Below, in pieces: positions 40,047 to 59,661 of a stretch of 64,000 nt of DNA. Each line of letters begins with the position of its first letter. Within the stretch, counting starts at the first letter, position 1. The notes under the pieces are model-generated. The model was not told the origin of the DNA. It saw only the letters and a program-made list of their open reading frames with translations, and did not search any database. A program made the translations under genes and the position numbers. The stretch covers positions 14,573 to 78,572 of the forward strand of contig CAWEMP010000013.1 in assembly GCA_963810205.1 (NCBI GenBank), given 5' to 3'. The DNA comes from an uncultured Acidobacteriota bacterium (lineage in GTDB: Bacteria > Acidobacteriota > Thermoanaerobaculia > UBA5066 > Gp7-AA6).

Positions 40047-41180
40047 TCAGGTGTTCAGGCCCTGGCGGAGCTCCCGCGCCAGGATCTCGACTGCCGAGCG
40101 GGTGCCGCCCGTCAGCTTCTCCTTCCAGACCGTCTCGGTCTCGAACCGCCGGTCACCGATCGCCTCGGCCCAGGGCCGGAGCGCCGCGTCGAGCTCGCCG
40201 GCGGACCAGACGTCGCCGCCGCGCTTCCTGACCATGGCGATGACGTACGGGACGATGCGGATGAAAGCGCGCAGCGACGTCGAGCTCTTGATCGAGTACT
40301 TGCGCCCGGCGAACGCCGCGGGGAAGGCCCGGGCGGCGGCCTTGAAGTAGTTGAGGAAGAAGCGGCGGGCATTCTCGCGAAACTCCCGGGCGACGCGTCC
40401 GCCGGCCGTGTCGATGGCGGCGAAGACGTCGCGCAGCTCGTCGGCGAGCGAGGCCTGCGTGACGGTGCCCTTGCCGATGCCGAGGACCTTGATCGATCCC
40501 CTCAGGGGCGAGCCCTCGTCCTCGTTCAGGGTGCGGATGACGTCGTGGGCGGCGGCCAGGTTGTCGTCGCGGTAGAGGCGGCGGCCGGCGAGCGAGATCA
40601 GGTGCGACGGGTTCAGCTTCGTGTGCTTGCTGTTGATCGTGACGAAGAGCTCGACGACCTGGTCGGCCGTGAGGCTGTCGAAGACGACGGCCGGCACCTG
40701 GAAGTCGCGCAGACTGTGCTTCTCGGCGAGCTGGTGCAGGGCGAGCAGGCGGTGCTGGCCGTCGAGCGCCCGGAGGATCCCGGACTCCTCGGGGAGCTTG
40801 AGCGAGCCGGCGTCGGCCCGGCCCCCCGAAGGCGCGAACTCCAGGCGCTTCTCCGAAACGAGCAGGACGCTGCCCGGGATGGCCGGAAGGGTCCCGGAGT
40901 CGGCGCACTGGAGGTAGTACGCCACGAGCTCGTCGATCTTCCTCTTGATGATCGGCCTCTGGAAGGCATGTTCCGAGGCGGCGATCCGCTTCTCCAGGAA
41001 CTCCCAGTTGACCCGTCCGGGGGCCGCTTTCGACTTGCCGCGGGTCGTTTCGCTGCCGGGGCCGAAGGAAAGCACCTCGAAGCCGACCAGGGACTGCAGG
41101 TCCGCGCCCGAGAGCAAAGCCTCGTAGAACCGCACTCCAAACTGGTTCAGCCGAAGCGAGGGCACCGAGACCATTGTCAC
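40047..41180 (-). CDS. DGQHR-domain protein (ParB-like nuclease superfamily; DndB/DpdB-like)
   Basis: LRALDGQHRLLAL motif and the ...VTINSKHTKL region. 377 aa. Confidence 0.8.
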   Translation of the reverse strand: MTMVSVPSLRLNQFGVRFYEALLSGADLQSLVGFEVLSFGPGSETTRGKSKAAPGRVNWEFLEKRIAASEHAFQRPIIKRKIDELVAYYLQCADSGTLPAIPGSVLLVSEKRLEFAPSGGRADAGSLKLPEESGILRALDGQHRLLALHQLAEKHSLRDFQVPAVVFDSLTADQVVELFVTINSKHTKLNPSHLISLAGRRLYRDDNLAAAHDVIRTLNEDEGSPLRGSIKVLGIGKGTVTQASLADELRDVFAAIDTAGGRVAREFRENARRFFLNYFKAAARAFPAAFAGRKYSIKSSTSLRAFIRIVPYVIAMVRKRGGDVWSAGELDAALRPWAEAIGDRRFETETVWKEKLTGGTRSAVEILARELRQGLNT

Positions 41181-41294
41181 CTCCTGGCCGTCCGGGTCGC
41201 CCGGGGGGTCGGATTCCCGTTCCGGGCGGCGAAAGCGTATACCGCCGTCAGGGGGTTTGGAGCCTAGAGAAATGACTCCCGGGCAGGTGGTCTT

Positions 41295-46062: not shown

Positions 46063-47424
46063 GAGCAGCTCCTTCTTGTCGAGGTAGACGAGGCGGACGC
46101 CCTGCAGAACCGTGCGGACGCTGCTTGCGAAACAGGCGGAGCAGGGTCAGGGCGAGCAGGACGCCGGCGACGTTGGGAAAGTACTTCGCATAGAAGTTGT
46201 AGAAGAGGTGCGCCGATGAACAGCATGATCACAACGACGAAACCGAGCGCCAGCGGCCCGTAGATCGAGGAAGATCCGGCGCTTGCGGCGCGAGAGCACG
46301 GGGACCTCGACGTTGAGCCGCAGGACGTGCTTCTTGAAGAGGGCGGCGAGGTACTCGAACGAATCCTCGCGCAGCTCCGGGATCTCGAGGACGCTCGCAA
46401 GGGCGTAGTAGCCGTCGATCTTGATCGAAGGGGATTGATGTTGAAGAAGAGCGTCGAGATCCCGGTGAAGAGCATCAGCTTGTACGACAGCTCGTGGAGA
46501 AGCGTGTCCGGGTAGGAGACGACCCAGAGCGCGACCGCGAAGCAGCAGATGATGGCCTCGATGTACATGCCGGCGAGCATGACCCAGAGCCGGTGCCACT
46601 TGCTTCTCGAAGAGAAGGGCGTCGGTCGTGTCGCAGTAGAAGGCCGGCATGAAGTAGAGCAACGCGACGCCGATGTCGTGCACCTCGCCGCCGTAAAACT
46701 TGCACGACGTAGCCGTGCGCGAGCTCGTGGATCAGGCCGATGAAGCAGAGAATGAAGAAGAACTGGACCGCGTCCCAGAAGGGCTTGCGCAGGAACGCGT
46801 AGAGCTCGAGGGTCTGCTCCCAGATGGGCGTCGAAGTGGCTGACGATGACCCCGGTCATCATCGCGATCAGGACGAGCGAGATCGCGACCGTCGGGGGCC
46901 GCCAGATCCAGCGGACGTACTTCTGCGTGCGGTCGAGGAAGCGGTTCGGGTCGAAGACGTGGAACGGGATGAGGAAGATGTCGAACCCCTCGGCCTTTTG
47001 CTCCGCCGTCCGCCGTCGGGCGTCCTTGATCCGGGCGAACTCCTGGAGGTTGCGCTCCGCGGCGGACTGCTCGAGCAGGTCCATGCCGTGCAGCATCTCC
47101 TCGTATTCGGGGACGAGGGAGGTCTCGATGACTTCGTTCGGGAACTGGGCCTGGTAGACGGCGTGGATCTCGGACAGCGTCCGCGTCCCGTCGAAGAGGC
47201 TCGATCAGGCCCCAGGTGCCCTCGTCGAAGCTGTAGTACTTGGTGGTGTCCGGGTTCTTGACGACCCACTGAACCTCGCCCATCTGGACGATGCGGCGCG
47301 CGATGAGGTTCTTCTTGAGCGCCGGCCGGTCTCCGGCCCGGCCGTGCTTCGCCGCGAGCGCGGCGGCGCCCTTCTCGAGGGGCGCCGCGGAGACGAGGGT
47401 CGACGCGCGCGCGACGGCGCTCAC
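46060..47424 (-). CDS. Peptidase M50 (site-2-protease-like) family membrane protein with HELAH motif; at least 2 frameshifts; C-terminal boundary unresolved
   Basis: GTG start overlapping the upstream stop (GTGA). FFILCFIGLIHELAHGYV...FYGGEVHDIGVALLYFMPAFYCDTTDA. Lower-coordinate boundary approximate. Confidence 0.45.
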
Positions 47425-48330
47425 GGGAGGAGCGGCCAGATCTTGTGCCAGAGGTAACGCAGGGGCTTGCGAAAGAGCACCGCGCCGAGCCGGCGCGTCC
47501 CGACGGAGACCTTGCCTTGCCCGAGCATGCCGGACTTCGGAGCGCCTCCGCGGGATTCTCGACGCGGACCTCGGCGATGACGAAGCGCTCTTCGCCCTCC
47601 TCGCGCAGGGCGGCGCCGACGCGCTGCGACCTGGCCTCGGAAGACGCGTGTCGGGAAGGGATTCATCTTGAGCGCCACCGGCTGCCCGGCCTTGAGCAGC
47701 GCCGACGTCGGCCTCGGGGACCGCGACCTCGGCCGTGACGCTGTCGACGTCGGCGACGACCGCACAGCTCGGCGCCCGCGACGAGCGCCTGTCCGACGCG
47801 CTGCTCGATGTGGGGCGTGACGAGGATGCCGGCGATCGGCGCGCGGAGGACGGTCTTCGCGAGCTGTTCCGTCTCGAAGGCGAGTCGTGCCGCGGCCTCG
47901 TCGCGGCGGGAGCGCGCCTCGAACATCGACGCGGCGTCGCCGGCTTCCGTGTGCCGCGCGATGTCGCTCTGGGCGATCCCCAGCGTCGCCCGCGCCTCCG
48001 CCATCGACGCCAGGTAGCTTCTCGTCCTTGAGCATGGCGATCGACGTCGCCGGCGGCGACATGGTCGCCTTCCCGGTGCTTCACTTCGCGGACGATCCCT
48101 TCGACGCCGGCCGTGACGGAGGCCCGGCGCCCGGGCAGCACGCGTGCCGGCCCGTCGACCTTAGGGGCCACGGCAGAACGACGAGGGCGAGGATCGCCGC
48201 CAGCGTTCCGATGAGCCCAGGACTGGCGCCGGCGCTTCGGGATCCCCTGGAGCTTTCGGCGCTTCTCGAGCAGCGGCTCCCAGAAGCCGGCGAGCGGGAC
48301 GTGCTTGTAGAGCTGGGCGTTGCGGACGGC
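47421..48330 (-). CDS. HlyD-family secretion protein (copy a); frameshifted
   Basis: C-terminus ...GMLGQGKVSVGTRRLGAVLFRKPLRYLWHKIWPLLP. Lipoyl-like VTAGVEGIVREVKHREGDHV upstream. Upper-coordinate boundary approximate. Confidence 0.4.
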
Positions 48331-49867
48331 GACGGTCGCCTGGTTGACGAGGATGGAGAGCAGGTCCCGCGTCTCCTCGTCGAAGATCAGGGCCTCCTGG
48401 CTCTCGAACCCGAGCACGCCGAGCTTGCCTTCCTCGTCCTTGAGCAGCACGCCGAAGAAGGAGCGCAACCCCGTTTCCGCGAAGATCGCGCGGAACTTCT
48501 CCTCGGTCTCGGGCCGGTCCGCGGTGATGGCTCCGTCCTCGGTCTGGGTGACGATCGCGTCGCGTCCCCGAGAGGAACACCCACTGGAGGAGGTCGTCCA
48601 TGCGGCGCACGCCGGCGTCCTTGCGGTCGATTTCGGCCGCGCCCGAGACGGCGCCCAGGCGCAGCTTTCCCTTGGCGTGGATGGCGATGGCGCAGCGGTC
48701 GTACGCGACGAGCGCCGCGGTCGCGTTGACGATCGTCTGCATGACCTTGTCGAGGTCCAGCGTCGCGGTGATCTCGCGGCTGACGGCGAGGAGCGCGTCG
48801 AGCTCTTCGACCTTCTTCTCGGCCTCGTGCTGGCGGGCGATACGCAGGGCCCGGACGGCCTGGCGGGCGATGTCGTGCGAGCAGCTCCTCGTCCTCCGCC
48901 GAGAACTCGGGATGCCGGCCGCGCTTGTTCGCGACGACGAGCGCGCCGATCGAAATCTCGTCTTCCACGAGGGGACGCGGCGAGCACGGAGCGGACGGGG
49001 TAGAGCGGGTTTTCCGTGGAGACGGGATCGGACTCGGGGATGCGGTTGCGGCGCATCGGGTTCTGGTCGGCGATGACGTCGCCGACGACCGTGCTGCCGA
49101 CGTGGTCGGGGGGCGATTCGACCTCGTAGTTCTCGTTGATCGCCATGGCCGCGACGGTGACGTCGTCTTCGCCCTCGAGGATCCAGAGGCAGGCCGCCTC
49201 GCCCGTGACGAAGTCCGCGGCCTTGCGAACGATCAGCTCCGACAGCTCGTCCGACGTCGATCGTCGAGCCGAAGGCCTTGGACAGGTCGTAGAGGTTCGT
49301 GAGCCTCTCGATCGCGTGGAGCATGCCGACCGTCTTGCGCTCGGACCGGAGGGCCCGTCCGAGGGCCGGCGCGGCCTGCTCGAGGAAGGCCTCGAGGCGG
49401 GCGAGCGCGACCTCGGCGTCGGGCATCTCGGTGAAGAAGATGGCCAGCAGCCCGACGACCAGTCCCTCGGCCTCGAGCGGCACCGCGATGCACGCCCGAT
49501 AGCCGGGGAGGCCGCGCACGAAGGGGTCGCTGGTGGCGAGCTCTTCGCCGGTCAGCACGATCGGCTGACGGTCGCGAACCAGGTCGCGGATGTAGCCGGA
49601 GTCCCGCGGCGCCGACCGCCTCAGGAACTTCTCGACGCCCTCGCCTTCGGCGCCGATGCAGAGGAAGAGGGGATGGACCGTGTCGGGCGCCCAGAGCAGC
49701 GTCGCGTCCGCGCCCGCCATCGACGCGCTCCAGCGCGCGGCCCAGCCGGAGGTCTGGGCGAGGTTCTCGCAGAGGGCGAGCTCCGCCAGGGCCGAGACCT
49801 GCGCGTCGGCCCGGTCCTTCTCGGTCTCGACCGGCTCGTCGTCCGGTCCCTGGGGTTCGTCCGCCAA
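48330..49867 (-). CDS. Multi-GAF-domain protein (at least 3 GAF-like segments across frames); several frameshifts
   Basis: Start MADEPQG...; GAF-like blocks in three frames. Lower-coordinate boundary approximate. Confidence 0.45.
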
Positions 49868-50240: not shown

Positions 50241-50392
50241 AGAAGTGGGCGGATTATGTCAAACAATCGGATTTGCAAGACCGGGAGCGTGAAACCCGGC
50301 CATGGCGGCGGCATCGAAGGTGCGGGAGTGAAGCTGTGAGCCCTTTTGGCCGGATTCGGACGGGACGGGGAAAGATCCGCCCGGGCCCCGGA

Positions 50393-50640
50393 ATGAGCGC
50401 CGGCGAGCGCCCGTACATCACTACTTCCTCTACCTCTATCTCGAGGGCGAGCTGCCCGAGGACCGCCGCCGCGAGTTCGAGCGCCACCTCGGGGTCTGCG
50501 ATCCGTGCCGGTACATCCGCCAGTACCGCGAGTCGATCGAGCTGGGCCGGGCGGCCTTCCGCGGCGACGACCTTCCGCGGACGAGGCGGCCCCCGAGGAG
50601 CTCGTCCAGGCCATCCTGCGCGCACGGATGAAGGGGTAGG
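50393..50640 (+). CDS. Possible zf-HC2 anti-sigma-factor-like small protein (H-x3-C-x2-C); frameshifted
   Basis: HHYFLYLYLEGELPEDRRREFERHLGVCDPCR in a frame offset from the ATG. Very tentative. Confidence 0.3.
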
Positions 50641-50680
50641 TTGGCCCGTTCCGTACGCGAGCGTGGATAGAATTCGGGCC

Positions 50681-51684
50681 ATGCCGATCGATCGCCGGAC
50701 CCTCCTGTCCCTGGCCGCCGCCTCGCTCGCACACTCCGGGTTCACATCCGCGCGGCCGGGCCCGACGAAGACCTCCGAGGTCAAGACCGCCGGGATCCGC
50801 CTGATCCCGGTCGACGGCAGGTACAAGGTCTGGACGAAGAAGCTCGGCAAGGGCCCCATCCAGATGCTCACGCTTCACGGCGGGCCGGGCGTCACCCACG
50901 AATACTTCGAGTGCTTCGAGGACTTTCTTCCGCAGGCTGGCGTCGAGTTCTACTACTACGACCAGCTCGGCTCCTTCTACTCCGACCAGCCCGACGACCC
51001 GTCCCTCTGGACGATCGACCGTTTTCGCGAGGAGGTCGAGCAGGTGCGCGCGGCACTCGGCCTGGAGAACTTCATACCTCTACGGCCAGTCATGGGGCAG
51101 CATGCTCGCGATCGAGTACGCGCTGAAGTACCAGAAGCACCTGAAGGGCCTGGTGCTCTCGAGCATGACGGCCTCGATCCCGTCCTACATGGCCTACGTC
51201 GCGAAGCTCCGCGCCGCGTTGCCGAAGCCGATGCTCGCCACACTCGAGAAGTACGAAGCCGAGGGCAAGTACGACGCGCCCGAGTACCAGGAAGCGATGT
51301 ACGAGGGCGTCTACAAGCGCCACGTCTGCCGTCTCGACCCGTGGCCGGATCCCGTGGCGCGCGCCTTCAAGCACATCAACAACCAGGTCTACGGAACGAT
51401 GCAGGGACCCAACGAATTCGTCGTGACCGGGACCTTCAAGGACTGGGACCGCTGGAACGACCTCGCGAAGATCAAGGTTCCCGACGCTCGTCGTCGGCGC
51501 GACGTACGACGAGATGAACCCGGACGACATTCGCCGGATGGGGACGCTCTTGCCGCGCTCCCGGGTCGCGATCTGCGAGAACGGCAGCCATCTGGCCATG
51601 TGGGACGACCAGGAAGCCTACTTCCGGCATCTCGTGGCTTTCCTGCAGGACGTCCAGGCCGGCCGGTTCCCGTCCCGGGCTTAA
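50681..51684 (+). CDS. Proline iminopeptidase-like alpha/beta hydrolase (S33) with Tat signal; 2 frameshifts
   Basis: MPIDRRTLLSLAAAS..., LTLHGGPGV, GQSWG nucleophile elbow. C-terminus in a third frame. Confidence 0.7.
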
Positions 51685-52008
51685 CCATTTCTTGAGAATC
51701 GCGGGGCTGGGGCGCACGAAACCTCTGCCGACCGGGTGCATCGAAGCGTCGTGAGATCCGACTCCGGGGGTACCCGCGTACTCCGCGGGAGACCGGGGGG
51801 GCCCCGGCTCCCATTCCGGGTGCGGGGCGAGGGCGCCGGAGACCCGGGGGATGTGCCGGGCGCGCTTTCCGGCGATAGAATTTGCGGCTCGAGTCGCTCG
51901 AGTCGCTCGAGCGACGCGATCCGGAAAAACGAGGGTATCTCGCGGTAGCCATGTCGGCTGCAGCGGTGGTGGGTGGAACCCCGAAACGGGGAGCGAAAGG
52001 AGACAGGG

Positions 52009-52428
52009 ATGAAGAAGGGCGATCTGACGGTGAAGGCGATCGGTCTCGCGGTGGCCGGTGTTCTCGCGGGCTCGCAGCTGCTCTCGGCTCTGCCGAAGAA
52101 CGAGTCGAAGGCCGGCGGCAAGAACGGCAACGCGAGCCAGGACGCCAAGGACAAGACGGCCGCTTCCTCCGACAAGCACGTCTGCAAGGGCATGAACTCG
52201 TGCAAGGGGAAGGGCGGTTGTAAGAGCGGCGACGCCGGCTGCGCGGGCAAGAACTCCTGCAAGGGCAAGGGCGGCTGCGCTTCGGCCGACATGAAGCACT
52301 CCTGCAAGGGCATGAACGCGTGCAAGGGCCAGGGCGGCTGCAAGAGCGGCGAGAACGGCTGCGCCGGCAAGAACTCCTGCAAGGGCAAGGGCGGCTGCGC
52401 GGTTCCGGTCGCGAAGAAGGCGGCCTAG
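52009..52428 (+). CDS. Cys-rich RiPP precursor candidate: Sec signal peptide plus two near-identical 6-Cys modules (12 Cys), bufferin/BUF_6/12Cys-like
   Basis: AAAGGAGACAGGG RBS. MKKGDLTVKAIGLAVAGVLAGSQLLSALP. Modules HVCKGMNSCKGKGGCKSGDAGCAGKNSCKGKGGCA and HSCKGMNACKGQGGCKSGENGCAGKNSCKGKGGCA. Confidence 0.7.
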   Translation: MKKGDLTVKAIGLAVAGVLAGSQLLSALPKNESKAGGKNGNASQDAKDKTAASSDKHVCKGMNSCKGKGGCKSGDAGCAGKNSCKGKGGCASADMKHSCKGMNACKGQGGCKSGENGCAGKNSCKGKGGCAVPVAKKAA

Positions 52429-52445
52429 TTTCATCGTCAGAAGAC

Positions 52446-52478
52446 GGGGGGACGCGGCCAGACCGCGCCCCCCGTTTT
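52446..52478 (+). terminator. GC-rich hairpin plus short U-tract between precursor and MNIO gene (putative attenuator/partial terminator)
   Basis: ggggggacgcgg ccagac cgcgcccccc gtttt. Confidence 0.4.
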
Positions 52479-52502
52479 GATTTCCCGAGACCCGAAGACA
52501 CC

Positions 52503-53363
52503 TTGAGACCCGAGAACCGAAACCGCTGGAGCTTCCCCGACCTCGGCGTCGGCGTGGGCCTGCGCACGGTCCACTACGCGCACATCCTCGAGCAGAAGCC
52601 CGAGGTCGATTTCTTCGAGGTTCTGTCGGAGAACTACCTCGACACGGGCGGCCGGCCCGCCTGGGTGCTCGACCAGGTCGCCGAACGGTACCCCGTCGTT
52701 CTGCACGGCGTTTCGATGTCGATCGGCTCGACCGATCCGCTCGACCGCGCCTACCTCTCGAAACTGAAAGCCCTCGCCGCCCGCACCCGCGCCCTCTGGG
52801 TTTCGGACCATCTGTGCTGGACCGGCGTTTCCGGACGGAATACCCACGACCTGCTCCCGATGCCGCTGACCGAGGAGGCGCTCGCGCACGTCGTCGCCCG
52901 CGTGAAGATCGTGTCGGACATCCTCGAGCGGCCGCTGATCCTCGAGAACGCCTCGACGTACGCGGAGTTCGCCGCGTCGAGCATGACGGAGTGGGAGTTC
53001 TTCGGCCGGCTGATGGAGGAGGCGGACTGCGGGATGCTCCTCGACGTCAACAACGTCTACGTCAGCGCCTTCAACCACGGATTCGACCCGAAGGCCTACC
53101 TCGACGCGATCGATCCGTCGCGCGTGGCGCAGTACCACCTCGCGGGCCACACGAACAAGGGAACGCACATCCTCGACACGCACAGCGACCACGCCATCCC
53201 GGAGGTCTGGGAGCTCTACCGCCGCTCGGTCGCGCGCACGGGCAACGTGGCCACGCTGTTCGAGTGGGACGGCGACATCCCGGCCTTCGAGGTGGTGCAC
53301 GCCGAAGCCCTGAAGGCCCGGAAGTTCCGGGACGAGGAGAACAAGGTTGCCGCGGCCTCTTGA
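52503..53363 (+). CDS. DUF692/UPF0276 enzyme = multinuclear non-haem iron oxidase (MNIO; MbnB/BufB-like)
   Basis: GVGLR...DFFEVLSENY...HGVSMSIGS...SDHLCW...LENASTY...LLDVNNVYVSAFNHG...YHLAGH...LFEWD. TTG start is inferred. Confidence 0.8.
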   Translation: MRPENRNRWSFPDLGVGVGLRTVHYAHILEQKPEVDFFEVLSENYLDTGGRPAWVLDQVAERYPVVLHGVSMSIGSTDPLDRAYLSKLKALAARTRALWVSDHLCWTGVSGRNTHDLLPMPLTEEALAHVVARVKIVSDILERPLILENASTYAEFAASSMTEWEFFGRLMEEADCGMLLDVNNVYVSAFNHGFDPKAYLDAIDPSRVAQYHLAGHTNKGTHILDTHSDHAIPEVWELYRRSVARTGNVATLFEWDGDIPAFEVVHAEALKARKFRDEENKVAAAS

Positions 53364-54198
53364 GCTGCCGCTTCCGCGCCTCCAGCGCTGGATGCAGGCG
53401 GTCATCGAGCAGCCCGGAACGGCGGAGGAAGCCGTCGCGGCCGAGGCGGCGCGGGCCGAGCTCGATCCCGCGTCGATCGCCGGCGTGATCCTCCCGTCGA
53501 AGACACTGTCGCCGGTCGAGCGAATCGGCGTCTACCAGGGCATGTACCTGCTGCGGATGGTCGAGGCGCTCGAAAACGATTTCCCGGCCGTCGCGCACTT
53601 CCTCGGGGCCGAGCGCTTCGCGGAGCTCGTCACGCGATACGTCGCGGCTCATCCGTCGAGGAGCTACACGTTCAACCGCCTGGGCGACAGTTTCCCCGGG
53701 TTCATTAGGACGTCGTACAGGGTCCGCCGGAAGGCCTTCGTCGCCGAGCTCGCGCGCCTCGAGAGTCTGGTGACCGAGGTGTTCGACGCGCCGCCGTCGC
53801 CAGCCTGGCCCGCCGAGGAGATCGCGGAGATCCCGGAAGCGGCCTGGCCGGGCGCCGTGCTCGTGCCGTCGGCGGCCCTGCGGGTCGGGTCGTTCGCCTA
53901 CCCGGTCAACGCCTACCTGCAGTCGGTCAAGGACGAGAACCACGACCATCCGGCGACCGGCCGGCAACCCACGTGGATCGCGGTTTATCGGAAGAACTAC
54001 GAGGTCTGGCGGCTCGATCTCTCGAAGCCGGCCCACGACTTCCTCGCCGCCCTCGTGAAGGGCCGGCCGTTCGGCAAGGCCGTCGTCGCGGCCACACGCG
54101 GGCTCCAGGGCGCGCCTGGCGAGCCGCTCTTCCGCTGGCTGCGCGACTGGGTGGCCGAGGGCTTCTTCCAGAGCGTCGTCCTCCCGACTCCTCGCTGA
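53347..54198 (+). CDS. DUF2063 protein (MbnC/BufC-like MNIO partner)
   Basis: Overlaps the MNIO gene by 17 nt. N-terminal LQRWMQAVI motif region. 283 aa. Confidence 0.75.
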   Translation: MPRPLELPLPRLQRWMQAVIEQPGTAEEAVAAEAARAELDPASIAGVILPSKTLSPVERIGVYQGMYLLRMVEALENDFPAVAHFLGAERFAELVTRYVAAHPSRSYTFNRLGDSFPGFIRTSYRVRRKAFVAELARLESLVTEVFDAPPSPAWPAEEIAEIPEAAWPGAVLVPSAALRVGSFAYPVNAYLQSVKDENHDHPATGRQPTWIAVYRKNYEVWRLDLSKPAHDFLAALVKGRPFGKAVVAATRGLQGAPGEPLFRWLRDWVAEGFFQSVVLPTPR

Positions 54199-54225
54199 GG
54201 AGCGCCCGCCTATAATCCCGGCCGC

Positions 54226-56520
54226 GTGCTTCCGGACTCGGGAATTCTTTCGCTGTCGAACGGGCGCAGGTGGCTCGCCCTCGGCGCGCTCTTCGCCCTC
54301 CAGCGCGCGCTCGCTCTCGCCGGCACACCCGCGAACGCGGCGCGCTTCGTCGCGATCCTGGCTCTCGGTCTCGCCTGCGCCGGGTCGGCGCTCGCGTTCG
54401 AAGGCCGCGTCGTCCTGAAGGGGTCCCTCGACCCGGTCGTCGGCGCGGAGGTCGTGGTCCTCGGGTCCAACGTCACGCAGATCACCGGCCCCGGGGGCTT
54501 CTTCCGCTGGGAGCCGACGCCCGTCGCGCCCTTCGAGGTTCTCGTCGTGCTGCCGGGCGGCCGTTACATGCGGCCGTTCACCGTCGCGAGCCTTCCCGCC
54601 GACGGCCCGGTGACGATCACCGTGGAGCCGATCGCCGAAGAGAGCGTGCTCGTGACGGCCGGAGCGGCGCCGACGATCGAGGCGACGCCGGTCAACGGGA
54701 CGACCATCGTCCCGAAACAGGACATCGAGTCGCGCCAGCCGTTCAACCTGACGCAGTCGGTGGAGAACGTGGCGGGCGTGTCGTCGGTTTCGGAGGGCCA
54801 GGCGGCGGTCCCGGCGATTCGCGGCCTCGCGCGCGGGAGGAGCCTCATCCTCCTCGACGGCGCGCGGGTGTCGTCGGAGCGGCGCGTAGGCCCGAGCGCG
54901 ACGTACGTCGACCCGTTCGTGCTCGATGGCGTCGAAGTGGCGCGCGGTCCGGGCTCGGTGGCCTACGGGTCGGACGCGTTCGGCGGCGTGATCGCGGCGC
55001 GCACGCTCGCCGTGGCGCCCGGCGGGCCGCTCCACGTCGAGGCGACCGGCGACTACGGCGTCGGAATCCCGGGCGGCAGCGTCGGCGCCTCGGTCTCCTC
55101 GCCTCTCGGCGCGGACGGGGGCATCCTCGTCGCCGGGCACTACCGCTCCTACGGGAACTGGGACAGCCCCGACGGCGAGGTGATCAACTCGGGCTTCCGC
55201 GACAGCGGCGTGCTCGTGCGCGCTTCCTACCTGCTGGGTCCCGGGACTCTGACCGCGGGCTGGCAGGGCGACTACGGCCGGGACATCGACCGTCCGCGCA
55301 ACAACTCGGACGTCGTGCGCTTCTTCTATCCCGAGGAGAACTCGAGCCGGTTCACGCTGTCGTACGACAGCCAGCCGTTCGCCGGGTTCTCGCGCGTCGG
55401 CTTCGTCGGGCTCATCGGCTCCTACGACCAGATCACGGACCAGTACCGGTACGCGACGCCGGCGACGGTCGCGTCGGTCGAGCGGGCCGACGTCTCGGCC
55501 AACGACTTCCAGGCCCGCGGCTTCGCGGAGCGGTTCTTCGGCCCCGTGCGGGTCGAGCTCGGAGTCGACGTCAACGGCCGCTACGACCTGCACGCCCTCG
55601 ACGTCGCCGTCCGGTACACGGACCCGATCGAAGAGCGGGTCAACGTGTCCGTCGACGACGCGCACCGCACGGACGCCGCCGGTTACCTGACGGCGGAGGC
55701 GGCGCTTCTGAAGCAGCTGACGCTCTCCGGCGGCGTGCGCTACGACAGCGTGACGACGGTCAACCAGGGCGGCTACTTCGGCGACCAGTCCACTTCGAAC
55801 GGCGCCGTGTCGGGCTCGGTCGCGCTGACCGCGGGCTCCTTCGGCGGTTTCTCCGCGACCGGGCAGTTCTCGCACGGGTTCCGCGATCCGGTCTTGTCGG
55901 ACCGGTACTTTCGAGGCCCTTCGGGCCGCGGTTTCATCACCGGCAACCCGGATCTCGAGCCGGAGACGGCGGACCAGTGGGACGTCGCCCTGCGCTACAA
56001 CGGATCCGGCTTCCGCACGGCGTTCTACATGTACGACTACACGATCACGAACCTCATCGAGCGGTACGCGGGCGAGCTCCCGGACGACTTCTTCTTCCGC
56101 AACCGGGGCGAAGCCCACCTGCAGGGGCTCGAGCTCGAGGTGCAGGTGGACCTTCCCGAGGGATTCGCCGTGGCGCTGGCCGGGCAGATCGAGCGCGGCG
56201 TCACCGTGGACGACGACCGGCCGATCGACGACATACCGCCGGAGTCGCTGAATCTCCAGCTGCGCAAGGCCTTCGGGCCGGCGTTCGTCCAGGCGCGCGG
56301 CGTCGTATACGCGGGCGACGCCAACCCCGGGCCCAACGAGCGGGCGAGGCCGGGCTACGGGTTGCTCGACCTCGGCGGCGGGTACCGCTTCGCGGAGCAC
56401 TTCGAGCTCCAGGCGTACGTGCGGAACGTGCTCGACAAGCTCTACCTGGTCAGTCCCGACGCGCGCGCCGTGCCGGCGCCGGGGATCTCGGCGACGTTCA
56501 CGGGCTTCGTTCGGTTCTAG
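54226..56520 (+). CDS. TonB-dependent outer-membrane receptor with N-terminal carboxypeptidase-regulatory-like domain
   Basis: Plug region (IRGLARGRSLILLDGARV), a 22-strand barrel, terminal F. Confidence 0.85.
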   Translation: MLPDSGILSLSNGRRWLALGALFALQRALALAGTPANAARFVAILALGLACAGSALAFEGRVVLKGSLDPVVGAEVVVLGSNVTQITGPGGFFRWEPTPVAPFEVLVVLPGGRYMRPFTVASLPADGPVTITVEPIAEESVLVTAGAAPTIEATPVNGTTIVPKQDIESRQPFNLTQSVENVAGVSSVSEGQAAVPAIRGLARGRSLILLDGARVSSERRVGPSATYVDPFVLDGVEVARGPGSVAYGSDAFGGVIAARTLAVAPGGPLHVEATGDYGVGIPGGSVGASVSSPLGADGGILVAGHYRSYGNWDSPDGEVINSGFRDSGVLVRASYLLGPGTLTAGWQGDYGRDIDRPRNNSDVVRFFYPEENSSRFTLSYDSQPFAGFSRVGFVGLIGSYDQITDQYRYATPATVASVERADVSANDFQARGFAERFFGPVRVELGVDVNGRYDLHALDVAVRYTDPIEERVNVSVDDAHRTDAAGYLTAEAALLKQLTLSGGVRYDSVTTVNQGGYFGDQSTSNGAVSGSVALTAGSFGGFSATGQFSHGFRDPVLSDRYFRGPSGRGFITGNPDLEPETADQWDVALRYNGSGFRTAFYMYDYTITNLIERYAGELPDDFFFRNRGEAHLQGLELEVQVDLPEGFAVALAGQIERGVTVDDDRPIDDIPPESLNLQLRKAFGPAFVQARGVVYAGDANPGPNERARPGYGLLDLGGGYRFAEHFELQAYVRNVLDKLYLVSPDARAVPAPGISATFTGFVRF

Positions 56521-56562: not shown

Positions 56563-57655
56563 GGGGTCAGCCCTGAAGGTCTGACGATTGGGGTCTGACC
56601 TGAAAGTCTGAAGGTTCGTGCCCGAGCGCGGACGCGACCCGCTCGACGCGTCTTGCGAGAGCCGGATCGCGAACCATCGCCCTCTCCAGCCGGCGCAGGC
56701 CGTGGGCGAACGCGGATTCGTCTCGCCCGAAGCAGCCGGCCAGCGCAGCAGCCGCGATCCCATGGTCCCGCCGCCCGACATAAGCGGTGATCAGACGTGC
56801 CTGTGACTCCGCTCGGCCCTGCGACGGCCCCTTCAGCCAACCGAGCGAGAAGCCCTGCAGCGTGCATGCTGCAGTCGCGAATGTCGACGGCGTCCAGCGG
56901 CTCTCCTTTGGCAAGGCCAACCGCGCCTCGTGCAACGAGCGCCGCGCGAACTCCTCCCCACCCTTGACGACGCGCCCGAGCGGTTCGACGTCGTCGTAGG
57001 ATTCAGGCTCGGCGGATCCCATCCAGTGCCGATACGCCGCGCGCGCTCGTGGCCGAGTCGACGCGAGCCGCTGCAGCACGAAATCGACATCGAGCCAGCT
57101 CGGTCCTCCTCCCTCGCGGTACCACCGATCGCTTGACCAGGGGAAGACCTCGGGTCGGTCCACGATCCCGGCCTTGACCGGATTGAGGTGAATGTACCGG
57201 ACGAGCGTCGCCAGGTAGCGCTCATGCTCCACGAGGAAGGCCTTGTACCGGCCCTGAAAGAGATGGCCGACGCGATCGTGCCGGACGTTGAACTTCTGGC
57301 TGTAGTAGAAATGCAGCGCCAGCATGACCTTCGAGAGGAGGACGGGACCTCGCTCGATCGCCAGATGGACGTGGTTCGGCATGAGGCAATAGGCGAGCAC
57401 GCCGAACCCATATCGATCGCGGCATTCGGCGAGTCGCGAGAGGTACAGTCGCCGATCTGCGTCGTCGCGGAAGAGGTCACGCCGCTCGTTTCCGCGGGCG
57501 ATGACGTGATAAACGCCCCCGGCGATCTCGACTCGCGGCGCGCGCGACATCGCTTCCGATTTCGCTCCTCTATCCCTACTATTGTCGCAAGCGGGCCCTG
57601 AAGTGTCATACCTTCAGGGCTGACCCCAAGTGTCAGACTTTCAGGGCTGACCCCC
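56563..57655. mobile_element. REP-associated tyrosine transposase (RAYT) unit flanked by inverted doublets of REP-like hairpin sequences
   Basis: Left GGGGTCAGCCCTGAAGGTCTGAC and GGGGTCTGACCTGAAAGTCTGAAGG. Right GTCATACCTTCAGGGCTGACCCC and GTCAGACTTTCAGGGCTGACCCCC (reverse complements, 1 mismatch). Confidence 0.7.
56567..57550 (-). CDS. tnpA: IS200/IS605-like Y1 (HuH) transposase, REP-associated (RAYT/TnpA_REP)
   Basis: VYHVIARGNERRDLF...LMPNHVHLAIE...HLFQGRYKA (HuH and catalytic Y). The ORF tail reads into the REP. Confidence 0.8.
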   Translation of the reverse strand: MSRAPRVEIAGGVYHVIARGNERRDLFRDDADRRLYLSRLAECRDRYGFGVLAYCLMPNHVHLAIERGPVLLSKVMLALHFYYSQKFNVRHDRVGHLFQGRYKAFLVEHERYLATLVRYIHLNPVKAGIVDRPEVFPWSSDRWYREGGGPSWLDVDFVLQRLASTRPRARAAYRHWMGSAEPESYDDVEPLGRVVKGGEEFARRSLHEARLALPKESRWTPSTFATAACTLQGFSLGWLKGPSQGRAESQARLITAYVGRRDHGIAAAALAGCFGRDESAFAHGLRRLERAMVRDPALARRVERVASALGHEPSDFQVRPQSSDLQG

Positions 57656-57680: not shown

Positions 57681-59661
57681 GTGAGAGACGCCCTGACGCG
57701 GGAGTGGCTCGAAGCGGACGGGCTCGGCGGCTTCGCCTCGGGGACGGTCGCGGGGATCCGGACCCGCCGGTATCACGCGCTCCTCCTGACCGCGACGACG
57801 CCGCCGACGGGACGCGTCGTGCTCGTGAACGGGTTCGACGCCTGGGTCACGACCTCCGCAGGCCGCTACGCCATCACGTCGCAGTCCTACGGGCCGGATG
57901 TGACCTACCCGGACGGTGGCTCCCGCGCCGACGCCTTCACGCTCGAGCCCTGGCCGCGCTGGACGTTCACGCTCCCGGACGGGACGCGCGTCGCACAGGA
58001 GATCTTCGTGCCGAAGGGCGCCTCGGCCGCGGCCGTTGCCTGGAAGCTCGTCTCCGGGACGGGCGCCGTGGCCCTCGAGGTCCGGCCGTTTCTTTCCGGG
58101 CGCGATTACCACTCCCTCCATCACGAGAACCCGTCCTTTCACTTCGAGGCCGCGGCGGCCGGCGACGGGAGCCTGCGCTTCCAGACGTACGCGGACCTTC
58201 CCGCGATCGCGATGCGTGCCAACGGCACATGGGCGCCCGGGCCCGAGTGGTACCGCAACTTCGTCTATGCCGAGGAGCGCGCCCGCGGTCTCGACTTCGC
58301 GGAAGACCTCGCGTCGCCGGGAACGCTCCGCTTCGACCTTTCCCGCGGCGAGGGGATCTGGCTCATGGCGGCGGAGGGGCACGAGGCGGCCCTCGGCACG
58401 GACAGCCCCGAGGCCGCCCTCGAGGCACTCCGCACCGCCGAGCGCGCGCGCCGCGCCGCCTTCGCCACGGGGCTCGAGCGCTCCGCCGACGCCTATCTCG
58501 TCCGCCGCGGCCAGGGGAAGACCGTCGTCGCCGGCTACCCATGGTTCACCGATTGGGGCCGCGACACTTTCATCGCCCTGCGCGGACTGTGTCTGGCCAC
58601 CGGCCGCCTCGACGAGGCGGGCGAGATCCTCGTCCAGTGGGCGGGCGCCGTCTCGGAGGGCATGCTGCCGAATCTCTTTCCGGACGGAAAGGTTCAGCCG
58701 GAGTTCAACTCCGTCGACGCCTCCCTCTGGTATCTCGTCGTCATGGCCGAGTACTTCCAGGCCCGCGCCGCCGCGGGCCGCCGCGTCGCGGGGGCCGAAC
58801 GGCAGAAGCTGCAGACCGCCTTCGGCGAGATCCTCTACGGGCTACGCGACGGGAACGCGCTACGGGATCCGCGCCGACTCGGATGGACTGCTCGCCGCGG
58901 GCGAGCCGGGCGTGCAGTTGACGTGGATGGACGCGAAAGTCGGCGACTGGGTCGTCACGCCGCGCATCGGAAAGCCCGTCGAGATCCAGGCCCTCTGGAT
59001 CAACGCTCTCAAGATCGCCGACGCCTTCACCGACGCTTTCCGCGGTCTCCTCGCGAAGGCCACCGAGTCCTTCGAGAAGCGCTTCTGGAACGAGGCCGAA
59101 GGCTGCCTCCACGACGTCGTCGACGTCGACCACCGTCCCGGTACCGCCGACCCGACCCTGCGGCCGAACCAGGTTTTCGCCGTCGGCGGACTGCCCGTTC
59201 CGCTCGTGACGGGAGAGCGCGCGCGGCGGATCGTCGACGCCGTGGAGTCTCGGCTCGCGACGCCATTGGGCCTTCGCACCCTCCCGCCGGGACACCCGGA
59301 CTACCACCCCCGCTACGTCGGCGGCCCACTCGAGCGCGACGGCGCCTACCACCAGGGCACCGTCTGGCCGTACCTGCAGGGCGCATTCGTCGACGCCTGG
59401 GTCCGCGTGCGCGGGGGAGGCGCGGACGTCGTCCGTCAGGCCCGCGAGCGGTTCCTCGCTCCGCTCCTCGCCCACCTCGACGAGGCGGGCGTCGGCCACG
59501 TCTCCGAGATCGCGGACGCCGACCCGCCCCACACGCCCCGCGGCTGCCCCTTCCAGGCCTGGTCGCTCGGCGAGCTCCTGCGTCTCGACCGGGTGATCCT
59601 GGCCCTCCCGCTCGGCGCCCGACACGCCGGGCGCGGGGCGGCATCCAAGGTCCGGGCATGA
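57681..59661 (+). CDS. Glycogen-debranching-enzyme-like (amylo-alpha-1,6-glucosidase family) protein; 1 frameshift near 58860
   Basis: [30 protein letters not shown]-domain. The C-terminal catalytic (alpha/alpha)6 region is in the 57916..59661 frame. Confidence 0.7.

Follow-up and report, generated by a model that had tools for sequence, protein, structure and literature searches.

Buf2 bufferins, a family that the grouping name captophorins also covers, were defined by Leprevost et al. as BUF_6/12Cys: precursors with a Sec signal and 6 or 12 conserved cysteines, with MNIO and DUF2063 genes adjoining (PMC11626156). In Caulobacter, the four central cysteines of Buf1 and Buf2 each change by -4 Da, CysI and CysVI form a disulfide, and the periplasmic products are induced by copper and protect against it; bufferins are made with Sec signal peptides and build up in the periplasm (PMC11626156). 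The heterocycle assigned to this enzyme clade is a 5-thiooxazole, not an oxazolone/thioamide (PMC13097082). Six cysteines are found in 90% of Buf2 precursors and 12 in the rest, and the AlphaFold model of a 12-Cys member consists of duplicated 6-Cys domains (PMC12452194). The stretch analysed here, 64 kb of DNA from an uncultured Acidobacteriota bacterium (hereafter the window), very probably holds a bufA2-bufB-bufC operon of the Buf2 family at positions 51874-54198, whose product is, by homology, a predicted copper-binding protein of the periplasm; the gene for a TonB-dependent receptor (TBDR) that follows it appears to be an independent neighbour.

The open reading frame (ORF) list and the raw sequence place four genes on the same (+) strand, encoding the precursor, the MNIO enzyme, its DUF2063 partner and the TBDR, and all of the ORF coordinates were confirmed. 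The first three genes and the two modules of the precursor are as follows.

52009-52428, + strand: bufA2 precursor, 139 aa with 12 Cys, ATG start, matching NF050166 BufA2
52174-52281, + strand: 6-Cys module 1 of the precursor, KHVCKGMNSCKGKGGCKSGDAGCAGKNSCKGKGGCA, delimited by module comparison
52294-52401, + strand: 6-Cys module 2 of the precursor, KHSCKGMNACKGQGGCKSGENGCAGKNSCKGKGGCA, delimited by module comparison
52503-53363, + strand: bufB, MNIO (DUF692) maturase, TTG start, matching NF050167 and PF05114
53347-54198, + strand: bufC, DUF2063 partner, matching PF09836, with a 17-nt overlap with bufB

Gene order, the overlap of bufB and bufC and the precursor motifs all match the published Buf2 cluster (PMC11626156, PMC12452194), and the same bufA2-B-C core occurs in related clusters of Acidobacteriota and other lineages. 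An initial annotation, made from the letters of the stretch alone, had already assigned these genes to the bufferin or BUF_6/12Cys class, and the profile searches of 52503-54198 that it suggested bear this out, with both Pfam models matching. BufB scores 354.4 bits on NCBIfam NF050167 MNIO_BufB (cut-off 310), covering profile positions 1-262 of 262, and 361 bits on Pfam PF05114; BufC scores 70 bits on Pfam PF09836 (DUF2063/HvfC_N; cut-off 27.2). The solved structure closest to BufB is 3BWW, a DUF692 protein with which the HG-S, SDHL, EN-S-Y, LDVNN-YV, H-AGH and DTH motifs align, and a PDB sequence search with BufC gave no match. Most relatives keep the start position of bufB as TTG, GTG or ATG, and bufA2, bufB and bufC are each full length against their profiles. 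We are confident in annotating the locus as a bufferin (captophorin) of the Buf2 type.

The bufA2 product, which begins MKKGDLTVKAIGLAVAGVLAGSQLLSALPK..., runs from a signal-like N-terminus (residues 1 to ~27) through a spacer rich in Lys, Ser, Ala and Gly to the two 6-Cys modules and a VPVAKKAA tail. Read by eye, its putative signal peptide has the n-region MKKGDLTVK, the hydrophobic core AIGLAVAGVLAG and a candidate cleavage site at LSA/L, and inspection of the N-terminus revealed neither a twin-Arg motif nor a lipobox. The match to NF050166 BufA2 (E 1.3e-14) falls in two stretches. The modules are identical at 31 of 36 aa and 96 of 108 nt and share the spacing C-x5-C-x5-C-x6-C-x5-C-x5-C. 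This duplicated 12-Cys core had been singled out as unusual, but it is common in the family: it is found in about 10% of Buf2 precursors (PMC12452194), and among the more than 7000 homologs returned by a sequence search, 101 of the 120 best show the same two-module layout, with identical Cys spacing and a linker of 6-7 residues. Nine of the 12 cysteines are invariant in an alignment of 73 sequences and the other three are kept in at least 90%. Module 1 of the window is closer to module 1 of other proteins than to their module 2 (70 cases versus 18), which suggests that the duplication is old.

Variation in Buf2-like precursors (P0026, P0055, P0074 and many of P0028-P0118) extends further. Three-module (18-Cys) and ~25-Cys forms exist, and some precursors have twin-arginine-like (RRxF) or lipobox-type signal peptides, not plain Sec ones. 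At locus L002 (8001-9367), an orphan 12-Cys precursor with no adjoining MNIO gene sits inside a CusAB/Cu-ATPase/DUF305/MerR island and overlaps the start of a fusion gene for an extracytoplasmic function (ECF) sigma factor and zf-HC2.

Like Caulobacter vibrioides Buf2 (bufA2B2C2, CCNA_02999-03001), the locus encodes a precursor with a signal-peptide-like N-terminus and conserved Cys-Lys-Gly motifs, followed by an MNIO and then a DUF2063 gene, with no DoxX gene, and its BufB lies above the NCBIfam MNIO_BufB cut-off. Unlike the Caulobacter cluster, it has a duplicated core (12 Cys in two modules) and an acidobacterial host, lacks a SigF/NrsF-type regulator pair, and has a putative sigma-70-type -10 element with a long structured leader. 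With the 12-Cys Buf2 subtype (PMC12452194) it shares a tandem pair of 6-Cys domains within a single precursor, here with a predicted Sec signal; there is no substantial difference, this being a member from an uncultured soil lineage of Acidobacteriota. The oxazolin/fontiphorin systems (HvfABC and FonABC, the EGKCG-repeat captophorins) also pair an MNIO with a DUF2063 protein, carry 5-thiooxazoles on repeated Cys motifs and have a copper-related role. However, the window BufB scores only 259 bits on the HvfB model NF003818 (cut-off 360), and the precursor, instead of the EGKCG (Lys-Cys) 5-mer repeats of HvfABC/FonABC, carries modules of 36 residues with Cys-Lys motifs. The initial annotation had proposed a probably undescribed member of the class; this ortholog is indeed uncharacterized, but the class, including its 12-Cys subtype, is already published (PMC12452194). 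Among the minor points added to the bufferin papers searched are the 12-Cys subtype in soil Acidobacteriota metagenome-assembled genomes (MAGs), where the surrounding region takes up and sheds metal-related cargo, and a clade-specific structured leader upstream of bufA2.

Several observations weigh against the Buf2 assignment or its copper role. The precursor scores 54.1 bits on NF050166, slightly under the cut-off of 60, and 16.4 bits on Pfam DUF7640 (threshold 28.1). BufC reaches 61 bits on NF050145 HvfC (residues 57-268; cut-off 142), and we found no profile model specific to BufC. An AlphaFold2 model of the precursor from the 73-sequence alignment was uninformative (predicted local distance difference test, pLDDT, 46; predicted template modelling score, pTM, 0.19). 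In a Pfam survey that covered 20 further ORFs of the window, neither copper-resistance genes nor a copper regulator turned up, and the ECF sigma/NrsF control of Caulobacter is absent at this locus. Finally, neighbouring genes contain frameshift-like breaks, a sign of imperfect sequence quality, while the three buf genes and the TBDR gene are intact.

Those breaks, in the flanking zf-HC2, iminopeptidase, GAF and glucosidase genes, could be taken as signs of an inactive or decaying locus, or the Cys-rich product might stay unmodified as a plain thiolate metal binder, as the existence of orphan precursors without an adjoining MNIO gene (L002; PMC12452194) would allow. We regard this explanation as very improbable. 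The buf genes are full length, with BufB spanning its entire profile, and the ribosome-binding site, the start codons and the hairpin that follows bufA2 are all conserved. Moreover, related MAGs, which are long-read assemblies, show similar breaks in other genes (bufB in L006, the TBDR gene in L013-L015), so the breaks probably reflect long-read assembly error rather than decay or pseudogenes.

A second possibility is that the cluster is of the bufferin type but serves a purpose other than copper buffering, such as handling another soft metal (Au, Ag, Cd or Zn) or protecting against oxidative or sulfur stress. The missing copper genes in the window fit this idea, as do the fusions to other metal-binding domains noted in the literature and the finding that gold and oxidative stress induce related operons (PMC12452194, PMC13097082). 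A YHS/thioredoxin-like gene in L014 and a gene for heavy-metal resistance-nodulation-division efflux in L009 adjoin the cluster, neither of them copper-specific. Against this, all tested bufferins/captophorins bind copper and protect against it (PMC11626156, PMC13097082). The orphan 12-Cys homolog of L002, moreover, lies within a Cus/Cu-ATPase/MerR island, and the CusA/CzcA-like efflux gene beside bufC in L009 can also be counted in favour of the copper reading. A role apart from copper therefore seems unlikely, and copper buffering is the function we favour.

The gene after bufC raises a different question. Immediately downstream lie the following features.

54211-54216, + strand: TATAAT box, with 9 nt between it and the GTG codon that starts the TBDR gene, read as that gene's own promoter and as lying outside the buf cluster
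54226-56520, + strand: TBDR gene, encoding Plug and TonB barrel domains, adjoining the cluster but not conserved with it

In methanobactin systems (MbnA-MbnB-MbnC, with MbnT), as here, an MNIO acts on peptide cysteines to give copper-binding heterocycles and a TBDR gene lies nearby, and the initial annotation had read the receptor as an MbnT-like partner for re-uptake. On that view, the modified peptide would be released, bind copper outside the cell and be re-imported through the adjacent TBDR. Three observations speak for it. The TBDR gene shares the strand of bufC and begins only 27 nt beyond it; bufA2BC was found upstream within 7.5 kb in all ten genome loci recovered with the receptor as query (L006-L015); and the published surveys would have missed such a neighbour by their rule of at most 10 bp. 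Those ten loci all come from MAGs of uncultured Acidobacteriota, mostly with 'MFD' isolate names, in agreement with the acidobacterial-like background that had been proposed; more distant homologs carry Thermoanaerobaculia or Vicinamibacterales labels.

The cluster itself differs from methanobactin in several respects, however. BufB scores 59.7 bits on the MbnB model TIGR04159 (cut-off 325), its partner is a DUF2063 protein and not MbnC, and the precursor is a 139-aa protein with a signal-like N-terminus, not a short leader-core peptide. The expected product is a periplasmic thiooxazole protein for detoxification, as opposed to a secreted oxazolone/thioamide chalkophore for acquisition, in line with the Sec export and periplasmic location of bufferins (PMC11626156). 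In Bordetella pertussis, inactivating the bufferin operon did not reproduce the phenotype caused by loss of the copper TBDR CrtA (PMC12914433). The window receptor also falls under the cut-off of every NCBIfam receptor subfamily, scoring best on TonB-hemin (176 versus 317 bits) and 36 versus 472 bits on the copper receptor model, and among PDB sequences it finds only generic matches (CirA, BtuB and PhuR).

The receptor gene, moreover, seems to be transcribed on its own. The TATAAT box lies inside the 27-nt spacer between the end of bufC and the TBDR start, and the exact hexamer occurs three times in the window (0.47 expected). The surrounding CCTATAAT is conserved in L006, L007 and L008 while its flanks diverge, with the box 9-11 nt before the start codon. 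The distance between bufC and the receptor gene varies widely: 30-80 nt in L006-L008, ~1.5 kb in L010-L013, 3.3 kb in L014 and 7.5 kb in L009 and L015. Two genes occupy the 1.5-kb gap of L010-L013, one for a BlaI-like repressor (62 bits on PF03965) and one for a membrane protein of M56-like type with an HExxH motif; the 3.3-kb gap of L014 has added YHS/thioredoxin-like genes (from Pfam, with YHS under its threshold), and the 7.5-kb gap of L009 includes a CusA/CzcA-like efflux gene adjoining bufC, identified by eye from its translation. Across L009-L015, two elements stand ahead of the receptor gene: a conserved inverted repeat, CTACGAGC-N-CTGGTAGTAGCTCGTAG, and, at 6-8 nt from the ATG, the -10-like sequence CCTAGAnT; the window and L006-L008 have neither the BlaI/M56-like regulator pair nor the repeat. 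This inverted repeat lies ~100 nt upstream of the receptor start (for example, at 9900-9985 of L012) and is likely an operator.

Nor does the receptor accompany the cluster. L025 is 92% identical in nucleotides to L011 from the upstream genes through bufC, but the homology ends with the stop codon of bufC, after which L025 leads directly into an S8 peptidase gene, which in L001 lies beyond the TBDR gene; the same block is missing from L027. Among 80 metagenomic Buf2 loci, about 19 of which have at least 2 kb of sequence 3' of bufC, none holds a receptor-like ORF (hidden Markov model search, E < 0.1, in which all five positive controls were recovered). The receptor is likewise absent from six further Pfam-annotated loci, which carry bufA2BC by itself, bufA2BC accompanied by DoxX or an orphan precursor gene in a Cus/Cu-ATPase/MerR island. 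Conversely, orthologs of the TBDR at 55-68% identity have no buf genes nearby and stand in unrelated neighbourhoods. The literature bears less on the matter: a published survey counted unrelated genes into the cluster only at 10 bp or less, and neither TonB nor Plug is mentioned in the supplements of PMC12452194. As the 10-bp rule would miss such a neighbour, this silence on receptors is weak evidence, and our own comparison carries the argument.

In light of its own -10 box, its variable spacing and its absence from L025, L027, the 80 metagenomic loci and the six further ones, a link between the receptor and the bufferin cluster is not supported, and acquisition of the methanobactin kind is highly improbable. 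Rather, the TBDR gene is an insertion/deletion polymorphism among close relatives, absent from every examined Buf2 locus outside one shallow clade, and looks to be an independently transcribed, coincidental neighbour of the Buf2 operon. Its position next to bufC should not be taken to indicate a chalkophore that is secreted and then re-imported. The segment after bufC is a hotspot of gain and loss (L025 from 10182 onward and L027 10207-10319, compared with L011 8413-12173), and depending on the relative it contains nothing, the TBDR gene alone, BlaI/BlaR1 with the TBDR gene, added YHS/thioredoxin genes or a CusA/CzcA-like efflux gene. The S8 peptidase gene that L001 has 3' of the TBDR gene is missing from the window, where the TBDR gene abuts a Y1 (IS200-like) transposase gene (56567-57550, - strand).

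Within the operon, the stretch between precursor and enzyme and the leader before the precursor both appear to be structured.

51874-51881, + strand: putative bufA2 -10 element, GATAGAAT, conserved among relatives, which would give a leader of ~120 nt
51945-51961, + strand: leader hairpin 1, GTAGCC-ATGTC-GGCTGC, from RNAalifold on 10 relatives
51979-51991, + strand: leader hairpin 2, CCCCG-AAA-CGGGG, just 5' of the ribosome-binding site, from RNAalifold
51997-52002, + strand: Shine-Dalgarno AAGGAG, 6 nt before the bufA2 ATG, from reading the sequence
52445-52474 (stem) and 52475-52483 (U-tract), + strand: GC-rich hairpin and U-tract, from RNA folding, a putative leaky terminator/attenuator

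An unusual hairpin attenuator had been proposed at 52446-52478. The structure is real: 52425-52500 folds at -35.2 kcal/mol (z -4.7), a stability that none of 200 shuffles reached, with four A/G-U pairs that lengthen the stem to 52441-52478 and an extra helix that pairs 52428-52432 with 52487-52491, and the hairpin has the tail UUUUGAUUU. A simple consensus scan for promoters and terminators missed it, probably because the stem is bulged. Unusual, however, it is not. A strong hairpin lies directly 3' of the precursor stop in all 15 loci folded (-25 to -46 kcal/mol), including the distant loci L003, L022 and L024, where the stem sequences are unrelated. Among 52 metagenomic loci, the 80 nt after the precursor stop average -36.3 kcal/mol, compared with -27.0 in background windows of the same loci, and in one third the fold is within the lowest 5% of the locus's own background; the 15 loci were folded sequence by sequence, the RNAalifold alignment being poor owing to indels. 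The two bufferin surveys searched make no mention of such a hairpin between precursor and enzyme.

The bufB start codon follows the U-tract by only ~20 nt, so bufB and bufC must depend on read-through. From the hairpin and the gene overlap, both of which are observed, we infer a leaky terminator that would keep the precursor far in excess of the enzymes. The retention of a strong precursor-enzyme hairpin by many Buf2 clusters, with a U-tract in the window and some relatives, fits a need for more substrate than enzyme.

The GATAGAAT octamer, with at most 1-2 changes, recurs ahead of the bufA2 ATG in 10 of the 11 relatives for which this region is available (L009 is truncated), and the distance from the start of the octamer to that ATG is 117-135 nt among relatives. 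AAAGGAG is invariant across all 12 aligned upstream regions. In leader hairpin 1, columns 74/86 pair as A-U in five sequences and G-C in five, and the stem of leader hairpin 2 is kept in 10 of 10 sequences. The leader motif is also present in L025-L027 and is absent from more distant Buf2 loci, making it specific to this clade. As only ~14 closely related sequences are available, we treat the leader hairpins as a lead, not a finding. Rfam at gathering thresholds gave no match anywhere in the window, leader included, and the consensus promoter scan found no sigma-70 promoter. An ECF-type promoter, GGAACC (51975-51980) with CGAA, was considered and rejected, its spacer being 13 nt and its position overlapping the ribosome-binding site. 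The closest relatives have a tandem or palindromic CTCGAGTCGCTCGAG tract 3' of the bufA2 -10 box. An exact copy of the octamer, GATAGAAT, stands at 50666-50673, where 7 nt separate it from the ATG of the iminopeptidase gene upstream. The -10-like boxes 7 and 9 nt before the iminopeptidase and TBDR starts suggest that this organism commonly makes leaderless or near-leaderless transcripts.

Taken together with the Caulobacter precedent, these features outline how the Buf2 operon might work. Transcription would start after the GATAGAAT -10 box and yield a structured leader of ~120 nt, and the precursor would be translated efficiently from its strong AAGGAG site and ATG. The hairpin and U-tract would end most transcripts, leaving read-through alone to reach bufB, with its TTG start and weak ribosome-binding site, and the translationally coupled bufC; from such a supply it follows that precursor would greatly exceed enzyme. 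In the cytoplasm, the iron- and O2-dependent MNIO BufB, with BufC, would oxidize the four central cysteines of each module to 5-thiooxazoles at -4 Da each. After Sec export and cleavage of the signal peptide near residue 27, the outer cysteines of each module would form a disulfide, for a predicted total of eight thiooxazoles and two disulfides (about -36 Da), and the two-domain product would be kept in the periplasm, where it may bind excess copper. Two chemical details of the initial annotation need revision here: the Buf2 change is -4 Da per modified cysteine, not per Cys pair (PMC11626156), and the heterocycle assigned to bufferins is the 5-thiooxazole, which leaves aside the oxazolone/thioamide it had offered as an option (PMC13097082).

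A more speculative thought is that RNA controls the bufferin operon of this clade in cis, the leader hairpins and the terminator after the precursor together acting as stress- or metal-responsive attenuation that sets both output and the precursor-to-enzyme ratio in place of an ECF sigma/anti-sigma pair. We rate this as distinctly unlikely. In a still weaker variant, the loss of BlaI/BlaR1 in the sub-lineage of the window would let read-through from bufC co-express the receptor.

The surroundings of the operon also vary among relatives. The initial annotation had noted a zf-HC2-like anti-sigma fragment and a proline iminopeptidase gene just upstream; both genes are present, but the former (50377-50640) is not a fragment. 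Rather, it is a full-length homolog with frameshift-like breaks, as are the iminopeptidase gene (50681-51684, spread over three reading frames), a GAF-domain gene (46732-49867, - strand) and an amylo-1,6-glucosidase-like gene (57681-59661). In some relatives (L001/L006 1451-6598; L010, L013 and L021), a second MNIO cluster lies between the zf-HC2 gene and the iminopeptidase gene or bufA2. Its genes run in the order HbpS-like, SGL, MNIO, HvfC_N and a small ORF of ~100 aa, which in L001 is a weak BufA1/DUF2282 match, and in L021 an ECF sigma gene stands directly upstream. This ~5-kb block is absent from the window, where the corresponding junction is 50640/50678. Further away, at 40047-41291 (- strand), a protein with a DndB-like (DNA-sulfur-modification-associated) domain is encoded among housekeeping-type genes, its neighbours including those for sulfatases, OmpA-family proteins, a Na/H exchanger, an ABC transporter and acetyl-CoA synthetase.

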